Source: Chloroflexota bacterium (lineage in GTDB: Bacteria > Chloroflexota > UBA11872 > VXOZ01). From it: a stretch of DNA of 64,000 nt. Numbering within the stretch: the stretch's first letter is position 1; every line of letters starts with the position of its first letter. The notes under the pieces were generated by a model. The model was given only the letters and a program-made list of their open reading frames with translations. It was not told where the DNA came from and did no database searches. This document shows, piece by piece, positions 3,326 through 39,379 of the stretch. The stretch is from positions 3,108,407 through 3,172,406 of the forward strand of contig OZ244798.1 in NCBI GenBank assembly GCA_965220015.1, written 5' to 3'. The position numbers and the translations under genes were made by a program.

Positions 3326-4780
3326 CTAGCTGCTGGCAAGCCGCGCGTACTGCTCGCGGCCGGCGTTGAAGATTTCCAGCATGCGTTGCCGTTGGTCGTC
3401 GTGGTCGAAGCGGCCTTTCGTCGTAATCCACGCGAGAGCGCGCTCCATCTCTTCCACAAAGAACGCGGCAGACGGCCTGGTCGCCGGATTCGTGCCGCCT
3501 GACTGTACGTAGACCGGACTGGTGTGCGCCCATTGGGCGTGGCCGTAGCTATCACGCTGGCGTCCCCAGCAGCGCGCGGCAATCCAACTATCGTTGGGTA
3601 CCGTAAGTCTGGCACGCAGCACTCCCTCGCGCAGGCCCTCGCTATACTCCTCGCGCGCCACCACCTCCCCGTTACACACAAGCTCGATGCGCTGCACAGG
3701 ACGCAACGCTTGCCAGCGCACGAAAGTATTCACATGCTTGCGTCGGCTCGCGCGCAGATCCACCACCTGTCCCGGCGGTTGACCGGCAACACGCAGCGTG
3801 AGCGCGGGGCCGTTGGTGATGAACGTCGCGCCGCTCTTGAGGCCGTCCAACCACGTATCGTACGAGAAAGAGTCCTCAAGCTGTACGTAAACGCGATTCG
3901 CCGAACAGACGAACCAGTCCGAACCCGTGCTCACCGGCAAATGAAAGCCGCAATTGAGCAGATGGTACCAAAGGTCGTATTCGGGGTCCGACCAGTAGGG
4001 ATCGAAGAGATTCAAGGCGTCCAGACGCCCCAGCCCGGCGGCGATAGGCGCCTCCATCCCCTGGCCGTTGTGGCACCAAATCGTCACGCCGCCCTGTTGC
4101 TGCGCCGCGGCGCAGGCATCGATCAGCGGTGGATAGTCCGGTGCCGATTCGTCCACCAGCACGCCGCGGCTGAGCGGCTCGACCTGCTCCTGCAACCGCA
4201 CCAGCATCACGTGGCCGTAGCCGATATCCCAAGGTGAGGCATTGTGACGCGACTCTTCACCCACGTCCACAACGTGGCTCGGCGTGGTGGGGTGCTCCAT
4301 CTCTCCCACCGGAAAGCGATTGGTTGCGTATTCCAGTTCTCCACGCTGCAGTACACTGACGATGGTGACGGTGAGGTCCTCCACCGAGGAATCGAAGCGC
4401 AAACGCTCCTCGGGGCGGCTCTCGAATTCGCGGTAGTGAATGTGGGTGTTACCGGGATAAAGCCCCTGGTTAGGCAGACTAATCCAACGCTGGAGCGGCA
4501 GTTCGAGGTTGACAGAGCCGTGCAGCGGCAGATCTACGGTCATGTGCAGCGGCGCGTACTCCGTGCCCCGCTCCACCCGCACGTCCACCTGCCCCCGCGA
4601 GGCCTCCAGTGTGAACGTTTCAGCCGCATAGAAGAACGGATTAGTGGTGCCTACGGTCTCCAGGCTGCCCTCAGGCGCCAGGAATCTACCCTGACTGCTC
4701 TGCACCGAGACCTTAGCCGCCAGTGGGCTGCCGGTAACCGCATCGCGAATTGTTCCGGTTAAGGTTGCCAAAGCTACCAC
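3326..4780 (-). CDS. CehA/McbA-family (PHP-like) metallohydrolase
   Basis: GNTHIH, GH, WCH and STGSD metal-site motifs; G-TF-TNGP and AHTSPVYV C-terminal motifs. Confidence 0.82.
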   Translation of the reverse strand: MVALATLTGTIRDAVTGSPLAAKVSVQSSQGRFLAPEGSLETVGTTNPFFYAAETFTLEASRGQVDVRVERGTEYAPLHMTVDLPLHGSVNLELPLQRWISLPNQGLYPGNTHIHYREFESRPEERLRFDSSVEDLTVTIVSVLQRGELEYATNRFPVGEMEHPTTPSHVVDVGEESRHNASPWDIGYGHVMLVRLQEQVEPLSRGVLVDESAPDYPPLIDACAAAQQQGGVTIWCHNGQGMEAPIAAGLGRLDALNLFDPYWSDPEYDLWYHLLNCGFHLPVSTGSDWFVCSANRVYVQLEDSFSYDTWLDGLKSGATFITNGPALTLRVAGQPPGQVVDLRASRRKHVNTFVRWQALRPVQRIELVCNGEVVAREEYSEGLREGVLRARLTVPNDSWIAARCWGRQRDSYGHAQWAHTSPVYVQSGGTNPATRPSAAFFVEEMERALAWITTKGRFDHDDQRQRMLEIFNAGREQYARLASS

Positions 4781-5099
4781 ATCTCCTCAATGGGTGATTC
4801 GCTAAATCTACCAAGACACGCGCACTTTGCCTTCAATCGCAGCCTGGAGCCCCCGCACTGGCACAAGTCCACCGAACACGCATTGAATGCCCCAAGCCGA
4901 GCGGCAAGCACGAGAGTCAATCTCATAGATCGGGTTCATGTGCCGAATTGTGCTTCGACAAGGGCTTCGCGCAGCACACAGCACGAACGGATTTCTCATC
5001 TATTCGGTTCGCCCTGAGACGGATATCTCAACTTTTGTGTTCGCCCTGAGTCTGCGGAAGGACAGCTTTGCATAGAGCAATGTAATTGTGAGACAAGGT

Positions 5100-6287
5100 C
5101 TACTCTTCATCAAACGGAAACTTCCGTCTTGCAGACTCCAAATCTATGTCCACGCCCAGGCCCGGGCCGGACGGCACTGTCACGTAGCCTTCGCCATCGA
5201 TTGCGGGCGCCGGCGTGATCAGGTCGTCAAAGAGCGGATTGGCGCCCTGGCGAAACTCGATTACCGGACAGTTAGGCAACGCCGCTGCGAGCTGCAGGCT
5301 CGCGTAGAAGAGGATCGCCGAACCCCAGATGTGTGGGGCTACCTGCAAGTTCGCGGCGTGAGCCAGCACGCCAATGCGGCGCGCCGCCGTAAACCCGCCC
5401 ACCACCGCCAGATCGGGCTGCAGAATGTCCGCCGCCTCATGGGCAATTATGTCGCGGAAGTCAAAGTGCGTGAAGTCGTTTTCACCGGTCGATATGGGAA
5501 TTGCAGTCGAGTCTCGCACCCGTCGCATGCCGTTCCAGTTGTCGCTGCTCACCGGCTCCTCGAACCACGCAATGTCGTACTCCTCGGCTGCCTGAGCCAA
5601 GCGAATTGCTTGGGACTCATTGAGCGAACCGTGGGCGTCGAGCATCAGGTCGGCATTGGGCCCGATAGCGTCCCGGACCGCCTGAATGCGGGCAATGCCG
5701 TCTCTTACGATCCGCGGCGCATCCATCGCGCCCACGCGCATCTTGACTGCGCGGAAGCCGCGTGCGATGTAGGCCAGCGCCTCTTCGCCGGCCCCGTCCG
5801 CGGCCGCATGGCCGCCGCTTGCGTACGTCGGCAAGCGCGACCGGTAACCGCCGCCCAGGAGCTTGTAAATGGGCACACCGAGCGACCGGGCGAATATATC
5901 CCACAGCGCCATGTCTATGCCGCCCATGGCGCAGACGGTCACGCCGCGGCGGCCCATGCGCGGCGCGCTCTGGCCGTACGTAAGCGCAATTCCCAGGCGC
6001 GGACCGTTATAAAGCTTCTCCCAGATGTACTCAGGCTGAGTGGGGTCCTCGCCGACGATCTCCGGTCCGAGTTCCTGCTCGACGCTAGCCTTCAGAGACC
6101 GGCAAGCGCCGCGGGTATACCCGTAGCCGGGATGCACCTCGCCGTGACCGACCAGCCCATCGTCGGTTTCCACCCTCACGATGATGGCATGGCTTTCGTC
6201 GTGTCGCCCATAGTCTGACGGGCGCTCGCGGCCACTCTTCTTCACCGGCCACCTTAGCGGTACGGCCTCTATCGTGCGGATTTTCAT
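5100..6287 (-). CDS. Mandelate racemase/muconate lactonizing enzyme family enolase
   Basis: GIDMALWDI, KMRVG, LMLDAH, WFEEP, GEND, QPD and APH motifs. Confidence 0.93.
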   Translation of the reverse strand: MKIRTIEAVPLRWPVKKSGRERPSDYGRHDESHAIIVRVETDDGLVGHGEVHPGYGYTRGACRSLKASVEQELGPEIVGEDPTQPEYIWEKLYNGPRLGIALTYGQSAPRMGRRGVTVCAMGGIDMALWDIFARSLGVPIYKLLGGGYRSRLPTYASGGHAAADGAGEEALAYIARGFRAVKMRVGAMDAPRIVRDGIARIQAVRDAIGPNADLMLDAHGSLNESQAIRLAQAAEEYDIAWFEEPVSSDNWNGMRRVRDSTAIPISTGENDFTHFDFRDIIAHEAADILQPDLAVVGGFTAARRIGVLAHAANLQVAPHIWGSAILFYASLQLAAALPNCPVIEFRQGANPLFDDLITPAPAIDGEGYVTVPSGPGLGVDIDLESARRKFPFDEE

Positions 6288-31232: not shown

Positions 31233-32153
31233 CAGGCTCTCACCTCATAATCTGTCACTGCATTCCGCTACGAATGCAAGAGTTCATTTACGTATCCTTG
31301 TCCTGACGCCCATCTGAAACGCTCGCACACTCCCGGCCCGGCAGGCGCAAATACCCCCTCGCTCTGGGGGGAGAGGCCCGGGTGAGGGGGACTTCTCCCC
31401 GTTCCCGCGCCTTTGCGCCGTCGGCAGAGTTACGCGAAGGTCTCCTTGGGCGAAATCAAGCGTAGCGGCAGTCTACCATAGCGCCGCCGTGTCCTCAAAG
31501 AATTTAGCTATTTTACATCAGCGCCTCATGGCTAGTCAGTTTCGTCAGTTGCGCAGGCTTGCAACCTGCACAAGCTCGGCGTTGGGCCTGACACGAGGCG
31601 ATCCTACTATTCCGTCGGTGCGGCGAAACGCCCATCCTTCACGTACGACAAGGCGTGATCAAGTAAAGACAAATAGCCGCTTGCGCGGGAAAGACATTGA
31701 ATCCCTGAAACATAAGCCAGTCCATCGTTGCCTTGATCACTTGACCTTCCCGCCAAGTCAGCAGCATACTCGAAACCGGTCGTAGATTTGTCATGCGCCG
31801 AGGAGGCAGAGCGATCATGGGCAATCGCAGGCGAATGACACGCCGGATCCTGCTCAGAGGAGCGGCAAGCAGTGCAGGCATGGTGGCCTTGGCGGCGTGC
31901 GGCACGGCGACGGCGACCCCGGAATCCGGTGAATCACCGCAAGCGGATACCAAAGCTGAGGAAAGCAATTAGTAGTTTCGGACTTATGTGATTTTGTGGG
32001 GGGTTGCGCTCGTACGGAAAAGGGTTGACAACTCTATCGTGAGGTAGACTCGCGTACGCGGGGTATTGGTGGTAAAATGAGGTTAGTTAAAACCACAGGG
32101 GTCCAGTGCGGAAACACTGAACCCCCACCCACTCCCATAAGGAGTTAGCAGAC

Positions 32154-32318
32154 ATGTCTGCGTTTAAAGTATCAGAAGCTATCCAGCCCTGCAAGGGCTG
32201 CTCGCAGTCGTTCCCCGTCTCCGTCCTCTCGGTCGAGGGGCTGTGCGCAAGCTGCGCCGAACTCAAAGGCTCTAAGTCGTTGGGCTTTCTGTGGCTCCGG
32301 CTCGCTGTGGAAGAGTAG
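32154..32318 (+). CDS. 54-aa putative zinc-finger microprotein
   Basis: TAAGGAG RBS; MSAFKVSEAIQPCKGCSQSFPVSVLSVEGLCASCAELKGSKSLGFLWLRLAVEE (CxxC...CxxC); below the ORF-track cutoff. Confidence 0.6.
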   Translation: MSAFKVSEAIQPCKGCSQSFPVSVLSVEGLCASCAELKGSKSLGFLWLRLAVEE

Positions 32319-32355
32319 CTAGCCGTCGGGCCTTGCGCTGGAATCATGGGAGGGA

Positions 32356-32547
32356 CTATTGCATCACGAGCGACAATTGGTACCACGCGCCATCGCCCCG
32401 CTTGGCAAACACACGAGCTAAGAAATCCAGGTCGGGCTTGGGGGGTGGTTCATCAGAGAGGACTATGTTGCCGATCCCAACCGGACCTTGCAAGAAGATT
32501 GGCGCGACAGGGTTGACGTGGTAGGGGCGCACGTATAAACTACGCAT
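32356..32547 (-). CDS. 63-aa hypothetical protein
   Basis: ORF track; preceded by hairpin and AGAAAG, like the 33703 module. Confidence 0.4.
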   Translation of the reverse strand: MRSLYVRPYHVNPVAPIFLQGPVGIGNIVLSDEPPPKPDLDFLARVFAKRGDGAWYQLSLVMQ

Positions 32548-32757
32548 TAGCTAGCTGCTTTCTGCCCCGGCGCTTCAACGCCGGGGCGGTTCCATTTAAC
32601 TGTTGCGCCTAGTGTATCAGGGTGCTACAAATGCTACTCCTGCCCCTCACGGGGCTAGCTGGAAACAACACAATTCCTGTGGCAATCTCAGTCTACCACA
32701 TAGCAAGGGTTGACAAGGGATAATTGGACAGTTAGCGTGAGGGTGAAAGGAGTGGTG

Positions 32758-32952
32758 ATGGATTCAAAAGAAGAACGCGTGGCACGTCTCGAAGGCGGCT
32801 ACGAACATCTGGCAACGAAGGCGGATGTTGAGCGAATCTTGGTGCAGATGGCGGAGTTGCGCGGTGAGTTTCGCGGTATCAAGTGGGCCCTGATTACTTC
32901 TATCGCCTTAGCCGGCATCACAGTTGCGGCCGTTGCCTTTCTCGCTAGTTAA
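32758..32952 (+). CDS. Small coiled-coil/C-terminal TM protein (DUF1640/XhlA-like 'HLATKAD' type)
   Basis: AAAGGAG RBS; RVARLEGGYEHLATKADV...KWALITSIALAGITVAAVAFL. Confidence 0.72.
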   Translation: MDSKEERVARLEGGYEHLATKADVERILVQMAELRGEFRGIKWALITSIALAGITVAAVAFLAS

Positions 32953-33039
32953 GAAGGAGGTGCGCTTTGATCTGTCTTTGTCCGTCGCCCATACGGGCGG
33001 CAAAGAGTAGGTCGTTCTTTGTCACAGAGGAGACTAGAC

Positions 33040-33336
33040 ATGAGAAAGCTCATCATCCTTGGGTTAGTCCTGATTTTGGCGTTGCTCCCAAGCAGCGCCT
33101 ACACCGCTGACACTCCCGACTACACCGATCCCACTGTCCTACAGGGAATCATGCAAGACTTGGAAGCGTCGGATGATCCGCATCAGGCGTTCTCCCAGCT
33201 ACCACCGGCGGTCCAGCAAGCGATCATGGATTCTATTCGGGAGAATGTGACGATTGAGGGACCGTTCGAGACTAGGAGCGGAGTTGTTCTCCATTGCCTA
33301 AGCCGCCACCATTACCCGCACCATAGCAAGGGTTGA
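33040..33336 (+). CDS. Secreted hypothetical protein, possibly 3'-truncated
   Basis: GAGGAG RBS; MRKLIILGLVLILALLPSSAYTA signal peptide; stop falls inside a direct repeat. Confidence 0.6.
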   Translation: MRKLIILGLVLILALLPSSAYTADTPDYTDPTVLQGIMQDLEASDDPHQAFSQLPPAVQQAIMDSIRENVTIEGPFETRSGVVLHCLSRHHYPHHSKG

Positions 33337-33347
33337 CAAGGGATAAT

Positions 33348-33376
33348 TGGTCAGGCAAGAGGGATGGGAATATAAT
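33348..33376 (+). promoter_or_regulatory. Sigma70-like promoter for the CAG tRNA-like gene
   Basis: TGGTCA-17 bp-TATAAT, followed by a perfect 26-bp palindrome 33377..33402. Confidence 0.6.
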
Positions 33377-33413
33377 AACCCCGTACCGATCGGTACGGGG
33401 TTTCGTTTTCTAC

Positions 33414-33508
33414 GGAGGGTATTGTCTGTCAGTACAGAACCAGTGCTCAGAACACTCGGAGCGCCAGGGCATAGTCCTGGCGTTGCGGTGCAACTCCGCT
33501 ACCCTCCG
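33414..33508 (+). tRNA. Non-canonical (8/4) allo-tRNA-like gene, anticodon CAG, Ser-type body
   Basis: Acceptor GGAGGGTA/TACCCTCC (8 bp) plus G73; D arm TCTGT-CAGT-ACAGA; anticodon AGTG-CT CAG AA-CACT; ~11-bp V arm; T arm GCGG-TGCAACT-CCGC (4 bp); no encoded CCA. Confidence 0.8.
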
Positions 33509-33702
33509 CAGCCTTTCACAAACCACCGCAACAGCTTCACTCTACAGTGGCTAGGATTAATTTGTCAACCCGCCGCCATTGCCCGCGCCATGAAGTCGTC
33601 CCAGGGCATCTCGGCTCGTCAAGTCCTCGTTTGGTAGACTAGACATAGTTAAATAGAGCCGCCCCGGCGCGTCAACGCCGGGGCAGAAAGGCAACCCAGG
33701 TT

Positions 33703-33906
33703 ATGGGTATTCTACGTCTACCTCGTCGCCGCGTCAAGTCCCCGTTTGCAGACGGCATCCCGAAGCGCAAACGACCTGCCACGCTCAATGGCGAGTGCGG
33801 GGCTTCGGCTTTTGCTAGTATAGAATCACAATTAAAAGCCACGCCCCCAGTGCGGAAACACTGGGGGCCAAACTCCAAGAAGGAGCATAGACATGTCTAT
33901 GCGTAG
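33703..33906 (+). CDS. Small basic hypothetical peptide
   Basis: Shares RRVKSPFADGIPKRKRPATL with the next ORF through a 61-bp duplication. Confidence 0.35.
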   Translation: MGILRLPRRRVKSPFADGIPKRKRPATLNGECGASAFASIESQLKATPPVRKHWGPNSKKEHRHVYA

Positions 33907-34054
33907 AGTACCCTTGCGTCCCCGCCGCGTCAAGTCCCCGTTTGCAGACGGCATCCCGAAGCGCAAACGACCTGCCACGCTCAGACCGCTACCTATGCCG
34001 CGCCTGAAACCGTTGACACCGCTGCCTAAGCTATCGCCATTGCCTGCGCCATGA
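33893..34054 (+). CDS. 53-aa Pro/Arg/Lys/Leu-rich peptide
   Basis: AAGGAG RBS; MSMRRVPLRPRRVKSPFADGIPKRKRPATLRPLPMPRLKPLTPLPKLSPLPAP; overlaps the transposase 3' end. Confidence 0.45.
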   Translation: MSMRRVPLRPRRVKSPFADGIPKRKRPATLRPLPMPRLKPLTPLPKLSPLPAP

Positions 34055-34883
34055 AGTCGTCCCAGGGCATCTCGGCCTTGCGGATATTGTACTTGTAGGT
34101 AGCCTCGTCGATGTAGGCGTGGGCGTGTTCCACCGTGTAGTGGTGGTGCTGGCCGGCAATGGCTCGCTTCACCAAGCTCCAGAACCCCTCGATGGTGTTC
34201 GTATGGGTGATACCGTCAACGTAGTGGATGCTGTGGTTGACCGTCTTGTGGGCCATCCAGTCGCGCACTTCGTTGTAGCCGGGGAACTGATCGGTCATGA
34301 GGACAGCTCGGGGATCCACGTTGCGGCGCAGGAAAGCGTTGATGAGCCGTGCCGTGACGCGGGGCGAGGGTTGCGCCTTCACCTTACCGTCGCGCTCGAC
34401 CGCGCCAACCACGGTGATCTTCTTCGTGCGGCCGCGCGAACGTTGCTCGTTGTTCTTGCGGGGCTTGCCGCCGATGTAGGTTTCGTCCGCTTCGACGATG
34501 CCGGACAGGAACGTGCTGTCGTCCACCATCGCCTTGCGGATGCGCATGGCCATGTACCAAGCCGACTTCTGGTTACAATCCAGGTCCCTGGCAAGCTGGC
34601 AGCTTGATACGGACTTCTTGGCGTTGATCAGGATAGCGATAGCGGCGAACCACTTTTGCAGGGGAATCTTCGTGCCCTGGAAGATGGTGCCGGAGAGGAC
34701 TTTGAAGGTGGACAGGCAGTTGTGGCAATTCCAGCGGCCCACGTGTTTATGCTCGGTCTTGCGGGCCACGTCGTTGCTGTTGCAGTAGGGGCAGCGAGGG
34801 TCGTCACCCCAGCGGAGCTGCTCCAGGTGGGCGATGCAGGCTTCCTGAGTGGGAAAGCGCTTGGCAATCGTCAAGAGGTTCAT
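34026..34883 (-). CDS. IS1595-family transposase
   Basis: LRW..CPYC...CHNC zinc ribbon; VEADETY, LMTD, NTIEGFWSLVKR catalytic motifs; CAGGAG RBS. Confidence 0.95.
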   Translation of the reverse strand: MNLLTIAKRFPTQEACIAHLEQLRWGDDPRCPYCNSNDVARKTEHKHVGRWNCHNCLSTFKVLSGTIFQGTKIPLQKWFAAIAILINAKKSVSSCQLARDLDCNQKSAWYMAMRIRKAMVDDSTFLSGIVEADETYIGGKPRKNNEQRSRGRTKKITVVGAVERDGKVKAQPSPRVTARLINAFLRRNVDPRAVLMTDQFPGYNEVRDWMAHKTVNHSIHYVDGITHTNTIEGFWSLVKRAIAGQHHHYTVEHAHAYIDEATYKYNIRKAEMPWDDFMAQAMAIA

Positions 34884-34911
34884 GGTATACTCCTGTTACC
34901 GGTAAGAAAAA

Positions 34912-34999
34912 GGAGCCGGTGGGATTCGAACCCACGGAAGCGCGCGCACACCTCACCCGATTCTCAGTCGGGTCCTTTAGACCGCTCAGGCACGGCTCC
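34912..34999 (-). tRNA. tRNA with Ser-type body and GAG (Leu) anticodon
   Basis: GGAGCCG TG CCTGAGCGGTCTAAAGG A CCCGA CT GAG AA TCGGG T GAGGTGT-GCGC-GCGCTTC C GTGGG TTCGAAT CCCAC CGGCTCC; next base U; no CCA. Confidence 0.85.
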
Positions 35000-35039
35000 T
35001 CGCAGAACCATCAGATTGAATTATCTGGTGGTTCTTTGC

Positions 35040-35048
35040 ATTATATCA
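35040..35048 (-). promoter_or_regulatory. Extended -10 promoter for the GAG tRNA and transposase
   Basis: TGA-TATAAT on the minus strand, then 13-bp hairpin 35004..35035 just before the tRNA. Confidence 0.6.
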
Positions 35049-35106
35049 GGGAAGCGCTTGGAGACTTCGAGTACATTCATAAGCAACCTTTCAAAGGGGT
35101 TTGAAC

Positions 35107-35310
35107 ATGACAGTGGATAATGGGGAACGGACATATTGTGTGCAATTGGATCCAGTGAGCGGATCATGGCCGCCTGTGATACGGCTAAAGGCAGACAAAC
35201 TAGCGAAGAAAGCTGGACCAGGGCAGCTTGTTTTCACACTCGGCGAAGAAGAAGTAGGGGAGATTACGGCGAAGGTCGCCGCGTGGTGGATTTGCGAAGA
35301 AACCGAGTAG
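35107..35310 (+). CDS. Small hypothetical protein
   Basis: AAGGGG upstream; MTVDNGERTY...EEVGEITAKVAAWWI. Confidence 0.55.
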   Translation: MTVDNGERTYCVQLDPVSGSWPPVIRLKADKLAKKAGPGQLVFTLGEEEVGEITAKVAAWWICEETE

Positions 35311-35342
35311 CTCATGGGCAATCTTTCTGAGGAGGGTATGGA

Positions 35343-35624
35343 ATGAAACGGGATATGGGTCTCATTCGGATGATTTTGGGTTATGTGGAAGAGAACGGGA
35401 ACGGGAACAGACCGTTACTTGCACCTGAATTTGAGCACTTTTGCCAGTTTGAGAAAGCTAAGATTGCGTACCATATTGGGTTGTGCCATGACGCAGGGTT
35501 CATCCTGCTAGCCAATTCTGTAGAGGCACACAGACGATGCACACACGGCGCGTACCAGATTATCGGACTTACCTGGGAAGGACACGAGAAGCTCGATGCA
35601 CTGCGTGGCGATCACTACGACTAA
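35343..35624 (+). CDS. DUF2513-like winged-helix protein
   Basis: MKRDMGLIRMIL, YHIGLC..AGFI, LTWEGHEKLD; GAGGAGG RBS. Confidence 0.8.
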   Translation: MKRDMGLIRMILGYVEENGNGNRPLLAPEFEHFCQFEKAKIAYHIGLCHDAGFILLANSVEAHRRCTHGAYQIIGLTWEGHEKLDALRGDHYD

Positions 35625-35667
35625 CCCTTTCACCTCCTGACTTCATTACCCCACCCCGTCAAGAGGT

Positions 35668-35985
35668 TCATGAGTTATTCTCTTGGGAAGCGCTCACGCT
35701 ACCAATACCGAAGGTGTGTAAGCATTCGGCGTCTTTGTTGATCTGATCCAACAACTCACGCAATTCCCTTATGCACTCAGCCAGATTGTCACGCTCACCA
35801 TAGAAGGATGGGATTGAAACGATGCTAGGATTATTTTGTAAGGATCGACCAAAGGACTCGATGGTCCCCCCCATACTTGAAAGTTTTGCGCGGATGACAA
35901 CTGCGCGTTGTTGATTAGAGATATGCCTGCGAACAAGATCGCCTAAAACTTGACTGTACTCTTCTTCCGTCATATCATTCTTCAT
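35668..35985 (-). CDS. Hypothetical helical protein
   Basis: AGGAGGT RBS; 105-aa ORF bracketed by 35-bp direct repeats. Confidence 0.65.
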   Translation of the reverse strand: MKNDMTEEEYSQVLGDLVRRHISNQQRAVVIRAKLSSMGGTIESFGRSLQNNPSIVSIPSFYGERDNLAECIRELRELLDQINKDAECLHTFGIGSVSASQENNS

Positions 35986-37325
35986 TCTCGTTACCTCCTG
36001 ACTTCATTATCCCACCCCGTCAAGAGGATGTCAAGTCCGAAACTACTAATTCCGGCTGAGGAAGCCCCCAAGACACTGGCGCAGACCACCGTCAGCGCCC
36101 TTATGGTGCTGCGGGGCCAGAACGAAACGTGGATCAAATCCTGGCTTACCATCTTTGCGGACTTCGAAGCCAAGCACCCCGAACATAAGCTGGAAATAAT
36201 CGATTCCGCATTCGACCAAGTTTCCGCAAGGGCGACCACTACCATGGCTGCCGGTTTCACGTTTGATGCCATCTACGGCTACTTTGGCTGGCTGGGGCTG
36301 TTTGTCGATGCGGGAATCATCCAGGCGATCAGTCCCCTCTTGGCGAAAGACACCGAAGTCTCCCAGGATGACTTCTATGAATTCGGATTTCTCAAACACA
36401 AAGGCATTGCCTATGGACTGGCGTGGCTGCTCACCGCCCACCCCATTTGGTCCAACAATGACAAGTTCGTCGAGGCGGGCTTGAAGACTCCCGCCGAGCT
36501 CGAAGCCGAAGGCAACTGGACGTGGGAAGCCGCGCTGGAAGCCGCAGTCAGGCTCACCAAGCGCGAGGGCGATGACCTCACGTTTGGCGGCCTGCAGATC
36601 TACCCCATGTACACGTCAAATCTGCCGTACTATGCCTGGGCGTGGGGCGCGGACTTGTGGAATGAAGGTTGCACGCAGGCCACGTTCAACACCCCTGCGT
36701 TTGCTGATGCGGTGCAATTCTGCGTCGACCTCTTTGCCAAACACAAGGTTATTGGCGGCAACTTCCTGGAAGGCACCTTGGGCATGTTCGAGCGGGCTAC
36801 CGGCGGCGTGCGCCAATTCGAGGAGAGGATCACGGCGCGCGACCTCTTCGAGATTGGCATGGCGCCCCGGCCGAAGGGGCCGAATGGCGAACGTGCAACG
36901 GTCATGACGCCCAGCGGTATCTTCATAGGCTATGGCGCCAAGAACGCGGAAGGCGGCTGGGCCTTCAGCAAATACACGGTGAGCGCCGACGCACTGCCGG
37001 AGATCGCAGCCACCGGCCACGGTCGCTTCACCGCCAACAAAAATCTGGAGCCGTTGACGCTCCATCCCTACGAGAACCCCGAAGTCTACAAGCAGATGGC
37101 AAGCGAAGGCCGGCCGGTGCCGCAATTGCTCAGGCAAGACGACTTCACCACCGAGTGGCGTGCCACGTGGGACGCAATGGTGAAGGGCTCGCTCACCGTC
37201 GCCGAGGGTATGGCGAAGACCCAAGCGCAGATGCAAGGCTGGATTAATAGAGGCGGCTGCCTGTGGTAGAAGCGCAAAGCCGCATTGCTTCGTTGAGATG
37301 CCGCTGCGTCATGGGGAAGACGCTG

Positions 37326-37806: not shown

Positions 37807-38023
37807 CCTTATCTTGTTGTCGAAGTTCATGAGTACCTCTTCGTCAATCAAGTGGGCATTACTCGTGGCGAAGAGACGCTGGAATTCGGCTTTCAGCGAA
37901 ATGGCAGTGTCTTGACAAACCCTTTTTGTGTAAACCACCTTTTTTCTCTCTTGACAGTCTTGCTTTTCTAGTACCATACTTTATACCGGAAGTCATGTAA
38001 TCAAACACGTAGGAGGCAAAGCG

Positions 38024-39379
38024 ATGCAGGGCGAAAGTAGTCGAATGACACGCCGGTTCGTGCTCCGAGGAGCCGCAGGTGGCGCGGGCCTGCTGGCACT
38101 GGCGGCATGCGGCACCGCGACCATGGCGCCCCAAGAAGGCGAAGCGCCTAAAGAAGAGATGAAGGCGGAAGAAGCGCCCAAGGCGATGGAGCCAACCGTC
38201 GTCAACGCGCTCATGGTGCTGCAGGGCCAGAACGAGACGTGGATCAACTCCTGGAATACCATCTTCGCCAACTTCGAAGCCAAGCACCCCGAATACAAGC
38301 TGGAAATCGCCGATTCCGGGTTTAGGGAAGTCACGACCAAAGCGGGCGCAGCCCTGGCGGCCGGTATTTCCTTCGACGACATCTACGGGTATTTCGGTTG
38401 GTTGGGGCCGTTTGTGGACGGAGGGATCATCCAGCCGGTCACGCCGCTGCTGGCGAAAGACTCTGAGGTATCCCCGGATGACTTCTACGAATCCGGCATT
38501 CTCAAGTACAAAGGCGTGGCGTACGGTCTCGCGTGGCTGCTCACCGCGCATCCCATTTGGTTCAACAAGGACAAGTTCGTTGAGGCTGGCCTGAAGACCC
38601 CGGCCGAGCTTGAAGATGAGGGCAACTGGACATGGGATGCCGTGCTGGAAGCCGCCGTGCGACTCACTAAGCGCGAGGGTGATGAAATCGCGTTTGGCGG
38701 CTTGCGCATCTACCCCACGCACACGTCCTACCTGCCCTACTATGCTTGGGCGTGGGGCGCGGACCTATGGAATGAAGGGTGCACGCAAGCCACGTTCAAC
38801 ACCCCGGAGTTTGCCGACGCGGTGCAATTCTGCGTAGACCTCTTTGCCAAGCACAGGGTAATCGGCGGCAACTTTCTCGAGGGCACCCTGGGCATGTTCG
38901 AGCGCGCAACCGGCGGCGTGCGCCAGTTCGAGGAGCGGATCACGGCCAACAATCTCTTTGAGATCGGCATGGCGCCCCGGCCGAAGGGGCCGAACGGCGA
39001 ACGCGCTACGGTCATGACACCCATCGGCATCTTCATCGGCGAAGGCGCCAAGAACCCCGAGGGCGGCTGGGCCTTCCTCAAGTACACGGTGAGCGCCGAC
39101 GCGCTGCCGGAGGTCGCTGCCACCGGTCAGGGTCGCTTTACGGCCAATAAGCATCTGGAACCGCTGACGCTCTTCCCGTATGAAAACGCCGAATATTACA
39201 AGCAGATGGCGAGCGAAGGCCGCCCGGTGCCGCAACTGCTGAAGCAGGGCGACTTCAATACCGAGTGGCGCGCCACGTGGGACGCCATGGCGGAGGGATC
39301 GCTCACCGTCGCTGAGGGTATGGCGAAGACCCAAGAGCAGGTGCAAGGCTGGATCAACGAAGGCGGCTGCCTGCGCTAA
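38024..39379 (+). CDS. ABC transporter solute-binding lipoprotein (Tat signal), carbohydrate-type SBP family 1
   Basis: TRRFVL twin-arginine, LAACG lipobox, WFNKDKF.EAGL, WTWD. Confidence 0.9.
   Translation: MQGESSRMTRRFVLRGAAGGAGLLALAACGTATMAPQEGEAPKEEMKAEEAPKAMEPTVVNALMVLQGQNETWINSWNTIFANFEAKHPEYKLEIADSGFREVTTKAGAALAAGISFDDIYGYFGWLGPFVDGGIIQPVTPLLAKDSEVSPDDFYESGILKYKGVAYGLAWLLTAHPIWFNKDKFVEAGLKTPAELEDEGNWTWDAVLEAAVRLTKREGDEIAFGGLRIYPTHTSYLPYYAWAWGADLWNEGCTQATFNTPEFADAVQFCVDLFAKHRVIGGNFLEGTLGMFERATGGVRQFEERITANNLFEIGMAPRPKGPNGERATVMTPIGIFIGEGAKNPEGGWAFLKYTVSADALPEVAATGQGRFTANKHLEPLTLFPYENAEYYKQMASEGRPVPQLLKQGDFNTEWRATWDAMAEGSLTVAEGMAKTQEQVQGWINEGGCLR

Follow-up and report, generated by a model that had tools for sequence, protein, structure and literature searches.

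An IS1595-family element of a Chloroflexota bacterium carries an 8/4 allo-tRNA and a Ser-like tRNA, both with leucine anticodons

Within a 64,000-nucleotide (nt) stretch of the genome of a Chloroflexota bacterium (contig OZ244798.1, positions 3,108,407 to 3,172,406 of the forward strand; hereafter the window), an insertion sequence of the IS1595 family has grown into a small transposon that holds two tRNA genes of different scaffolds, i.e., tRNA1 (anticodon CAG) and tRNA2 (anticodon GAG). tRNA1 is an allo-tRNA with the 8/4 architecture of Mukai et al. 2017, and tRNA2 is a canonical 7/5 class-II tRNA that resembles the tRNA-Ser of its host. We consider it moderately likely, by analogy with published allo-tRNAs, that both are charged with serine and compete with the host tRNA-Leu, which would place serine at a low level at CUG and at CUC/CUU codons.

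Allo-tRNAs are known mainly from metagenome fragments and tests in E. coli. Here, a Leu-anticodon allo-tRNA is housed by an insertion sequence that is complete, bounded and recently active; the genome is closed and belongs to a phylum that the covered portions of PMC5389517 and PMC7609411 do not list for allo-tRNAs.

A bounded and polymorphic IS1595-family insertion

A first-pass annotation made from the letters of the window had proposed an element with 19-bp inverted repeats and a target-site duplication. Its bounds were borne out by the terminal inverted repeats, which are 19 nt each and 100% complementary in a repeat search, and by the flanking GCTGAGGAA copies (Table 1), although the start of the right copy of the duplication had to be moved to 36055. 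The duplication is a direct repeat of 9 bp, but the empty-site joint described below shares 8 letters, leaving its length at 8 or 9 bp; a target duplication of 8 bp is typical of IS1595 elements. The inverted repeats and short duplication are in keeping with membership in the IS1595 family. The element occurs as one copy in the 3.56-Mb single-contig host genome and has a G+C content of 54.8% vs. 59.0% for the genome.

The insertion is real, precise and polymorphic in the sampled population, since contigs from public sequencing runs contain the exact empty-site joint alongside the filled form. The element interrupts a gene for an extracellular solute-binding protein, the reading frame of which stops at the left duplication and picks up exactly at the right duplication. 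Three public runs, in which the library kind is not stated, were compared as contigs, and the empty-site contigs join position 31955 to 36056, skipping 4,100 nt with 8 letters common to both sides. In runs X1 and X2, which derive from one sample (with the element at 96–97% of sampled words), the empty form had a depth of ca. 20 and 15.5, vs. ca. 55 and 50 for the filled form. In run X3, a 2,078-nt contig with a depth of 39 crosses the empty site with 255 nt on its shorter side, and differs from the flanks at 28 positions over ca. 1,030 aligned bases (ca. 97% identity). Two other read joints (32125 to 32644, and 32825 to 34022) have short sides, unknown letters in between and a low depth in X3; these may stem from variant elements lacking the tRNA1 module or from other copies of repeated parts. 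High read depth over 34358–34531 and 34880–35053 is taken to reflect conserved transposase and tRNA parts from other organisms.

The transposase had been called an intact-looking IS1595 enzyme, and profile searches agree. The protein matches DDE_Tnp_IS1595 (PF12762) at 6.4e-35 and Zn_ribbon_IS1595 (PF12760) at 1e-9 in Pfam, thereby showing the DDE transposase with N-terminal zinc ribbon that marks the family, scores 194.9 bits (cut-off 75) against the NCBIfam IS1595 model (NF033547), and is of full length against 80 relatives with 51–76% identity. ARAGORN found two tRNA genes in the whole 64-kb window, both inside the element and convergent across the transposase gene, with the CAG and GAG anticodons that had been read before.

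Identity, kin and leaders of the two tRNA genes

Allo-tRNAs were defined by Mukai et al. 2017 (Nucleic Acids Res 45:2776; PMC5389517) by a 12-bp acceptor branch split 8/4 or 9/3, a tRNA-Sec-like D arm, a longer anticodon stem, a long variable arm, and a G73 or U73 together with a usually non-serine anticodon. tRNA1 displays each of these features, and therefore belongs to the kind that the first-pass annotation had named. Its minimum-energy fold has an 8-bp acceptor stem, a 4-bp T stem, a long variable arm and a discriminator G (G73), next to a 5-bp D stem with a 4-nt loop and a 6-bp anticodon stem with one bulge. Genome G011, from a different species of this genus, has a copy with 90% identity to tRNA1 that likewise attains an 8/4 cloverleaf as its minimum-energy fold, and the two copies differ by compensatory changes in the acceptor and anticodon stems as well as in their anticodons (CAG vs. 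AGG). This closest relative of tRNA1 follows a truncated IS1595 transposase gene (G011:C3; locus L026, 4263–8018), with a PIN-domain gene and a HicA/HicB pair as neighbours.

Because BLAST with tRNA1 against 401 genomes of the phylum yielded only short chance-level matches, at which ARAGORN called no tRNA, its kin had to be sought with a covariance model (R1), which was built from three tRNA1 copies and applied at a threshold of E ≤ 0.01. Within the host's class, R1 detected 12 members spread over 10 of the 98 genomes searched, and it gave no hits in 136 genomes of other classes from a phylum sample of 151. When these 12 members and two metagenome contigs were aligned by fitting to the model, 91.9% of the cells formed standard pairs and 20 of the 32 pairs changed on both sides, and the covariation score was reached by none of 500 shuffles; sliding the partners by 1–3 columns as a control lowered the pairing to 38–51%. 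Compensatory changes were found in four of the five helices. The eighth acceptor pair covaries (GC in 10 members and AU in 4), the T stem is paired in 96.4% of the cells, all five D-stem pairs change on both sides, and the variable stem counts 7–9 pairs, of which 8 change on both sides.

The family also shares acceptor positions with serine-type tRNAs. G1-C72 is kept in 13 of the 14 members and G2-C71 and A3-U70 in all 14, and a GGAG start is common to the four host tRNA-Ser genes and the host tRNA-Sec. The discriminator is G in most members (U73 in one), and a long variable arm is present throughout. Together, these features shared with published allo-tRNAs suggest that tRNA1 would be a substrate for serylation. 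Acceptance by SerRS (or AlaRS) and activity on the ribosome are further marks of allo-tRNAs, which tRNA1 would share by analogy with the E. coli experiments of PMC5389517.

The anticodons, for their part, point mostly to leucine. CAG occurs in two members, GAG in four, UAG in two and AAG in one, while two members have proline anticodons (UGG and AGG), one has an isoleucine anticodon (GAU) and two have a degenerate loop or arm. NAG anticodons, which read the leucine CUN box, thus make up 9 of the 14 aligned members, with position 34 being any of the four bases and A35 and G36 fixed. The aim at the CUN box, proposed earlier for the pair in the window, accordingly turned out to be a family trait. 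Since the sequences are kin, this recurrence with a variable position 34 should be read as a hint of constraint rather than as a statistic. All 12 intact anticodon loops carry A37, vs. G37 in the host tRNA-Leu with CAG, GAG and UAG. Two further members of the same tRNA family on metagenome contigs (L139, 496–579; L148, 691–773) have a CUA anticodon that would read the amber stop codon, and lie in tandem with CGA (Ser) members ca. 120 nt away.

tRNA2 is a different molecule, which matches the Rfam tRNA model end to end with 59.3 bits (gathering score 29) and every stem intact; ARAGORN places it at 34910–35000 on the minus strand. Its whole-length identity to host class-II tRNAs discriminates only weakly (66% to Ser-GGA, 63% to Tyr, 55–60% to Leu), and in a DNA search of 41 genomes its only matches were a T-arm match and, in two genomes of the class, genes for tRNA-Ser(CGA). 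Compared by eye with the four host tRNA-Ser genes, it has the same GGAG acceptor top, the same D-arm layout (three pairs plus G13-A22, G15, equal loop length) and the same variable-arm pattern (a U, a 7-bp stem and a C), and its T arm with the flanking C is identical to that of host tRNA-Ser CGA and GGA. It is this arm-by-arm likeness, rather than whole-length identity, that makes "Ser-bodied" a fair description of tRNA2 as judged from sequence. The 7/5 body, long variable arm and Ser-type acceptor top are those of a canonical tRNA-Ser, yet tRNA2 is not filed as a tRNA-Ser gene because of its GAG anticodon and U73. For the pair as a whole, the first-pass label of Ser-bodied tRNAs stands insofar as both RNAs have Ser-type rather than Leu-type features, but tRNA1 is not an ordinary Ser cloverleaf, being 8/4 and tRNA-Sec-like.

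Both RNAs fall outside the pattern of bacterial tRNA-Leu. A73 is the main determinant for LeuRS in bacteria, and all five host tRNA-Leu genes have A15 and A73, with four starting GCCGA and the UAG one starting GGGGA. Measured against the tRNA-Leu identity set and these five genes, tRNA1 departs by its G73 and tRNA2 by its U73 and G15, and neither has the host Leu acceptor stem.

The link with IS1595 elements recurs beyond the window. When three IS1595 transposases served as tblastn queries, 5 of the 11 other loci proved to have a homologue within 4 kb of their allo-tRNA (6 of 12 with the window). Since the five genomes concerned have few IS1595 matches (2, 2, 3, 20 and 6), chance adjacency within 4 kb would be ca. 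0.5–4% per genome. Moreover, a tRNA1-type gene converges on the transposase in five of seven linked loci, and one of 14 metagenome contigs has such a convergent pair, with a UAG tRNA 244 bp from the transposase gene. Inverted repeats enclose three loci, i.e., the window, L130 and L134. The L130 element (55–2726; G023:C5) is 2.7 kb long between 24-nt perfect repeats and holds a transposase, an allo-tRNA(UGG) and a DNA methylase gene; the L134 element (3362–6205; G434:C1) is 2.8 kb long between 36-nt repeats with 81% identity and holds a transposase, an allo-tRNA(GAG) and a DNA methylase gene. No convincing inverted repeats were found around the tRNA-transposase pairs of L131, L129 and L150. The transposases of the linked loci are only 33–57% identical to that of the window, so the pairing of allo-tRNA and IS1595 is either old or has arisen more than once. 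Recurring across divergent transposases, the pairing provides a concrete vehicle, open to testing, by which ambiguity of sense codons could spread horizontally.

Some further features of these loci were observed. The L130 and L134 methylases are of the N6/N4 DNA methylase type, and the L130 element adjoins a gene for a type I restriction R subunit. In genome G260 (G260:C1; L129, 6551–9170), which has the 20 IS1595 matches, a second insertion sequence with 22-nt perfect inverted repeats lies between an allo-tRNA(CAG) and the nearby IS1595 transposase gene, and the two allo-tRNA genes of this genome (CAG and GAG) have near-identical upstream regions.

Both tRNA genes of the window are preceded by a hairpin, and for each of them a TATAAT promoter plus leader hairpin had been claimed. 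Both hairpins and the TATAAT of tRNA1 stood up to scrutiny. For tRNA2, however, the extended –10 motif TGATATAAT was read by eye (35048–35040, minus strand), and the promoter scan itself chose a different, weaker site. Overall, the scan counted 8 promoter-like sites vs. 2.1 ± 1.2 in shuffles. The tRNA1 hairpin is listed as terminator-like because a T-rich linker follows its stem, and the last 60 nt of the tRNA2 leader fold at –16.2 kcal/mol. A stable hairpin a few bases upstream was present in all 15 folded genes (tRNA1, tRNA2, 11 class relatives and 2 metagenome contigs). Under a stricter count that asks for an uninterrupted stem of at least 10 bp, it was seen in 10 of 12 class members and in both Leu-anticodon metagenome members, vs. 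0 of 6 in the metagenome GUC group and 2 of 48 ordinary host tRNA genes; the tRNA2 hairpin does not reach this length. The hairpins differ in sequence between loci and are conserved in position, several being followed by a T-rich linker, and where a –10-like box is visible (tRNA1, tRNA2 and both G011 copies) it lies just before the hairpin. The leader may thus act as an attenuator or as a 5′ stem-loop that restricts how much of a harmful RNA is made, and its conservation suggests how a potentially lethal tRNA could be held in check.

Possible roles of the two RNAs

Serine insertion by both RNAs would work as follows. Since SerRS does not read the anticodon, the host enzyme is proposed to charge tRNA1 and tRNA2 with serine, after which they would compete with host tRNA-Leu(CAG) and tRNA-Leu(GAG). 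Serylation and Leu-to-Ser decoding would be expected from the published experiment in which a related, acidobacterial (8/4) allo-tRNA-GAG inserted serine at CUC in E. coli, where its induction arrested growth (PMC5389517). Counting leucine codons in 1,208 long open reading frames (ORFs) of the genome gave 31.6% CUG, 30.6% CUC and 12.6% CUU, confirming the earlier statement that these dominate; low-level serine would thus fall on ca. 75% of the leucine codons, i.e., 7.6% of all codons. The element's own genes do not avoid them, with 13 of the 15 leucine codons of the transposase gene being CUG, CUC or CUU. The terminator-like hairpin between the promoter-like site and the tRNA could keep expression tolerably low. 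Furthermore, tRNA2 lies on the strand of the transposase gene, with 27 nt between its end and the start codon, at the place where sister copies of the element have the transposase promoter leader. As tRNA2 would have taken the place of this ancestral promoter, transcription of the transposase would run through tRNA2 and its leader.

A number of observations weigh against this reading. Serine at ca. 7.6% of all codons would be very harmful, so that high toxicity is to be expected, and some allo-tRNAs are inactive in translation (Mukai et al., PMC5389517). tRNA1 has no match to the Rfam tRNA clan at E ≤ 1, and ARAGORN misses 5 of the 12 family members. In tRNA1 and its closest kin, the T loop is odd (UGCAACU, with a G as base 55) and the D loop lacks GG. 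The genus also includes two degenerate copies, one with a 6-nt anticodon loop (G005) and the other with a broken T stem (G011:C2). The covariation counts rest on a model-fitted alignment, which favours the structure, although independent folds agree. tRNA2 carries U73 vs. G73 in host tRNA-Ser, has no relative in a pattern search that allowed up to 3 mismatches (of the 401 Chloroflexota genomes scanned, the 400 besides its own gave no match), and has no exact-pattern match in the metagenome contigs; CCA is encoded in neither gene. On the side of the element, neither L130 nor L134 showed a target duplication. Of the 80 loci of the closest transposase relatives, R1 covered 38, with repeated copies from two Poribacteria and Phototrophicaceae genomes set aside, and gave no hits; ARAGORN found only six ordinary tRNAs in all 80 loci, none placed like tRNA2. 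Sister elements with recurrent tRNA cargo and compensatory changes were thus seen for the tRNA1 family, but not among the closest transposase relatives searched, nor for tRNA2. As most IS1595 copies, including the closest relatives, lack a tRNA, the pairing is not obligatory, and the tRNAs are cargo rather than transposition machinery.

Alternatively, the RNAs might be made without serving as adaptors in translation, acting instead as tRNA-shaped regulators, as decoys for anticodon nucleases or for toxins of toxin-antitoxin and defence systems, or as modulators of the transposase message, which passes through or against them. The non-canonical T and D loops of tRNA1 would fit such a role, as would the fusion of tRNA2 to the transposase leader, the convergence of tRNA1-type genes on the transposase in five of seven linked loci, and a genomic neighbourhood of conflict systems, including the PIN-domain gene and HicA/HicB pair around the G011 copy, the DNA methylases of the L130 and L134 elements, and the type I restriction subunit beside L130. 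Published allo-tRNAs, too, lie near toxin-antitoxin genes, and allo-tRNA-UAU species were inactive in E. coli (Mukai et al., PMC5389517). Nevertheless, the invariant acceptor positions shared with tRNA-Ser and the 7-nt anticodon loop, with U33 in most members, point to a synthetase and the ribosome as partners, and the variation of position 34 with A35 and G36 kept looks like selection for a codon box. Since, in addition, a related allo-tRNA decodes CUC as serine in E. coli (PMC5389517), and none of the six small cargo ORFs scanned matches defence-system models, with no cargo ORF matching a toxin family, we regard a decoy or regulatory role as rather unlikely. If it did apply, tRNA mimicry would be linked to insertion-sequence biology.

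The degenerate copies in G005 and G011:C2 and the orphan status of tRNA2 might alternatively suggest that both genes are decaying passengers, i.e., captured copies of tRNA-Sec or tRNA-Ser with drifted anticodons that are functionless and merely tolerated owing to very low expression; the mosaic element, with its duplicated fragments of its own transposase gene, and the recent and polymorphic insertion would be compatible with this. Decay is improbable, however, given the compensatory changes in four of five helices across 14 members, the intact stems and 59.3-bit score of tRNA2, the recurrence of NAG anticodons with changes at position 34, and leader hairpins that keep their position while their sequence differs between loci. 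Even less probable is an ordinary extra supply of tRNA-Leu charged by LeuRS for the two commonest leucine codons (CUG and CUC). ARAGORN does label both genes tRNA-Leu, though from the anticodon alone, and both are class-II tRNAs with long variable arms like tRNA-Leu. The host, by contrast, possesses a full set of five tRNA-Leu genes of its own, each with A73 and four of them with GCCGA starts (GGGGA for UAG), against the G73 or U73, GGAG tops, G15 (tRNA2) and A37 of the element's tRNAs.

Returning to serine insertion, a bolder and class-wide version would have IS1595 elements serve as vehicles of a self-contained module for code ambiguity. In that module, a hairpin-gated, Ser-accepting tRNA, always with A37 instead of the host G37, would act at leucine CUN and sometimes proline CCN codons. 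In the window element, two scaffolds would together cover CUG and CUC/CUU and, with one of them turned into the leader of the transposase message, transposition and mistranslation would be switched on together. As a joint claim this is doubtful. Were it true, a jumping gene could carry conditional Leu-to-Ser recoding between genomes. In more general terms, a capacity for blurring the genetic code might be a mobile trait in its own right, and the promoter, hairpin, tRNA and transposase form a defined construct for experiments.

Compared with published allo-tRNAs, the tRNA1 family has the same 8/4 12-bp branch, long D stem with tetraloop, longer anticodon stem and long variable arm, the same G73 and non-serine anticodons, and a similar location close to genes of toxin-antitoxin systems and transposons. 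The GUC group, which is abundant according to PMC5389517, is among the metagenome contigs that share the T arm and acceptor strand. The published hosts are Clostridia, Proteobacteria and Acidobacteria (PMC5389517, and the 2020 review PMC7609411), whereas the present one belongs to the Chloroflexota, and the anticodons found here are mostly of the leucine CUN box instead of UAU, GCG or GUC. Moreover, the allo-tRNA is here the cargo of a repeat-bounded IS1595 element, while the covered text of PMC5389517 mentions only one pseudogene overlapping a "transposon-related protein". The leader hairpin forms another difference, as the words "hairpin" and "leader" are absent from the main text of PMC5389517.

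Other systems resemble the pair in part. The tRNA-Ser(CAG) of CTG-clade yeasts similarly joins a Ser-type body to a leucine CAG anticodon. In Ascoidea asiatica it coexists with tRNA-Leu(CAG), so that CUG is read both ways, and in the yeast CUG-Ser2 clade it carries A37 like the tRNAs described here (PMC11415595). The yeast gene is eukaryotic nuclear, lineage-fixed and non-mobile, whereas the present system is bacterial, recently inserted and polymorphic, with two scaffolds that cover CUC and CUU too. The tRNA-ProX of Streptomyces and Kitasatospora (PMC10404621) is likewise a bacterial tRNA with a mismatch between body and anticodon that causes proteome-wide substitution and is toxic if overexpressed; it differs by having a Pro body with Asn, Thr or Ala anticodons and lying beside a special ProRS gene, and its abstract does not report it as insertion-sequence cargo. 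With respect to the vehicle, the present element shares its DDE transposase with zinc ribbon, inverted repeats, short duplication and extra genes inside with the IS1595-family insertion sequences with passenger genes that Siguier, Gagnevin and Chandler reportedly described in 2009, the difference being that its cargo consists of tRNA genes. The methylase cargo of the L130 and L134 elements matches the solitary DNA-methylase genes flanked by insertion sequences that PMC2853133 credits to Siguier et al. 2009.

In print are allo-tRNAs as such, Ser-inserting ones with leucine anticodons, their toxicity, and a loose association with toxin-antitoxin and transposon genes (PMC5389517; PMC7609411). The first-pass annotation knew of no such pair on an IS1595 element, and a full-text literature search, with most subscription journals and supplements outside its scope, agrees in that none of the papers listed links allo-tRNAs to IS1595. 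The same search did not retrieve allo-tRNAs in Chloroflexota, allo-tRNAs as bounded IS1595 cargo, their pairing with a second, canonical Ser-type tRNA(GAG) fused to a transposase leader, or a conserved allo-tRNA leader hairpin.

Build of the element and accompanying genes

The element looks like a mosaic grown by recombination between related copies, with ca. 3 kb of cargo flanking the transposase on both sides, as indicated by its displaced leader and by duplicated transposase fragments and blocks. In sister copies from the same genus, a near-identical terminal repeat is followed ca. 65–95 nt inside by the transposase start codon, with a TTGAC...GATAAT...AGGAGGT leader in between and no cargo on that side. 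These copies were covered to ca. 140 nt beyond the stop codon. In the window element, a leader of this type (36034–35993), containing a promoter-like TTGACA-17-GATAAT with 11 of 12 consensus matches (36034–36006, minus strand), now precedes a 105-aa ORF. A 16-nt copy of the first transposase codons (35657–35672) overlaps a 35-nt repeat (35632–35666) with a second copy at the right end of the element (35993–36027). The last codons of the transposase gene recur as a 42-nt copy 65 nt beyond tRNA1, and the repeat search revealed several further blocks duplicated within the element.

Between 33611 and 33944 there are three copies of the motif GTCAAGTCC(C/T)CGTTTG, which is similar to the inner part of the terminal repeat, and the region from tRNA1 to the stop codon of the transposase contains two direct repeats of 86 nt; these may be duplicated subterminal binding sites for the transposase. 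The CCAGTGCGGAAACACTG hairpins at 32103 and 33847 resemble the anticodon stem of tRNA1, and are better read as minus-strand terminators; a weak Rfam "sar" match at these hairpins is due to chance. The Rfam Tymo_tRNA-like match (24.7 bits, below the gathering score of 40) reflects T-loop sequence only.

Table 1. Features of the IS1595-family element and its insertion site (window positions)
Feature	Position	Strand	Remarks
Signal-peptide part of interrupted solute-binding-protein gene	31793-31963	+	Reading frame
Left target-site duplication copy, GCTGAGGAA	31955-31963	.	Read from sequence
Whole IS1595-family element with cargo	31964-36054	.	4,091 bp, repeat-bounded
Left terminal inverted repeat	31967-31985	+	19 nt
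54-aa ORF with CxxC...CxxC	32154-32318	+	Sub-threshold family matches only
64-aa ORF with C-terminal hydrophobic tail	32758-32952	+	Multi-copy family in genus
98-aa ORF with signal-peptide-like N-terminus	33040-33336	+	No family match
Promoter-like TGGTCA-17-TATAAT before tRNA1	33348-33376	+	10/12 matches; consensus match only
Terminator-like leader hairpin before tRNA1	33377-33402	+	11 bp, loop 4, T-rich linker; ends 11 nt before tRNA1
tRNA1, 8/4 allo-tRNA, anticodon CAG	33414-33509	+	ARAGORN, fold, covariation
Copy of transposase gene 3′ end	33574-33615	-	42 nt, 98% identical
Terminator-like hairpin downstream of transposase gene	33843-33868	-	Core copied at 32095-32128
IS1595-family transposase, apparently intact	34026-34883	-	285 aa; Pfam, NCBIfam
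tRNA2, canonical 7/5 class-II tRNA, anticodon GAG, U73	34911-34999	-	Rfam tRNA 59.3 bits
Leader hairpin before tRNA2	35005-35034	-	6+5 bp, one mismatch; ends 5 nt before tRNA2
67-aa ORF	35107-35310	+	No family match
93-aa ORF, DUF2513	35343-35624	+	58.5 bits, cut-off 29.6; phrog_585
Copy of first transposase codons	35657-35672	-	16 nt; overlaps 35-nt repeat
105-aa ORF behind ancestral transposase promoter and ribosome-binding site	35668-35985	-	No family match
Right terminal inverted repeat	36033-36051	-	19 nt
Right target-site duplication copy, GCTGAGGAA	36055-36063	.	Read from sequence
Body of interrupted gene, extracellular solute-binding protein	36055-37269	+	Pfam SBP_bac_1, 6e-19

Among the cargo ORFs, searches of Pfam, PHROGs, NCBIfam and PADLOC gave no informative family except DUF2513. 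The 64-aa ORF matched DUF2730 with 20.6 bits, which is under the cut-off, and phrog_736 at 1.6e-6; its family has many DNA-level copies in the genus, one of which directly adjoins the degenerate tRNA1 relative in G005. For the 105-aa ORF, all scores in a protein-atlas search were 0.80 or lower.

With regard to tRNA genes near other IS1595 copies, a tRNA-Arg at L054 was considered as cargo and dismissed as a neighbour, since it sits ca. 45 nt beyond the inverted repeat and the twin copy L055 lacks it. A tRNA-Gly lies near transposase locus L069. Elsewhere in the host genome (G000:C1:3544832-3544926), ARAGORN called a 95-nt "tRNA-Arg(tct)" of odd sequence, which may be a false call or an irregular tRNA. 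Finally, an antisense ORF pattern at 37859–38722 of the window suggests that the interrupted gene is followed closely by a second, paralogous gene for a solute-binding protein.

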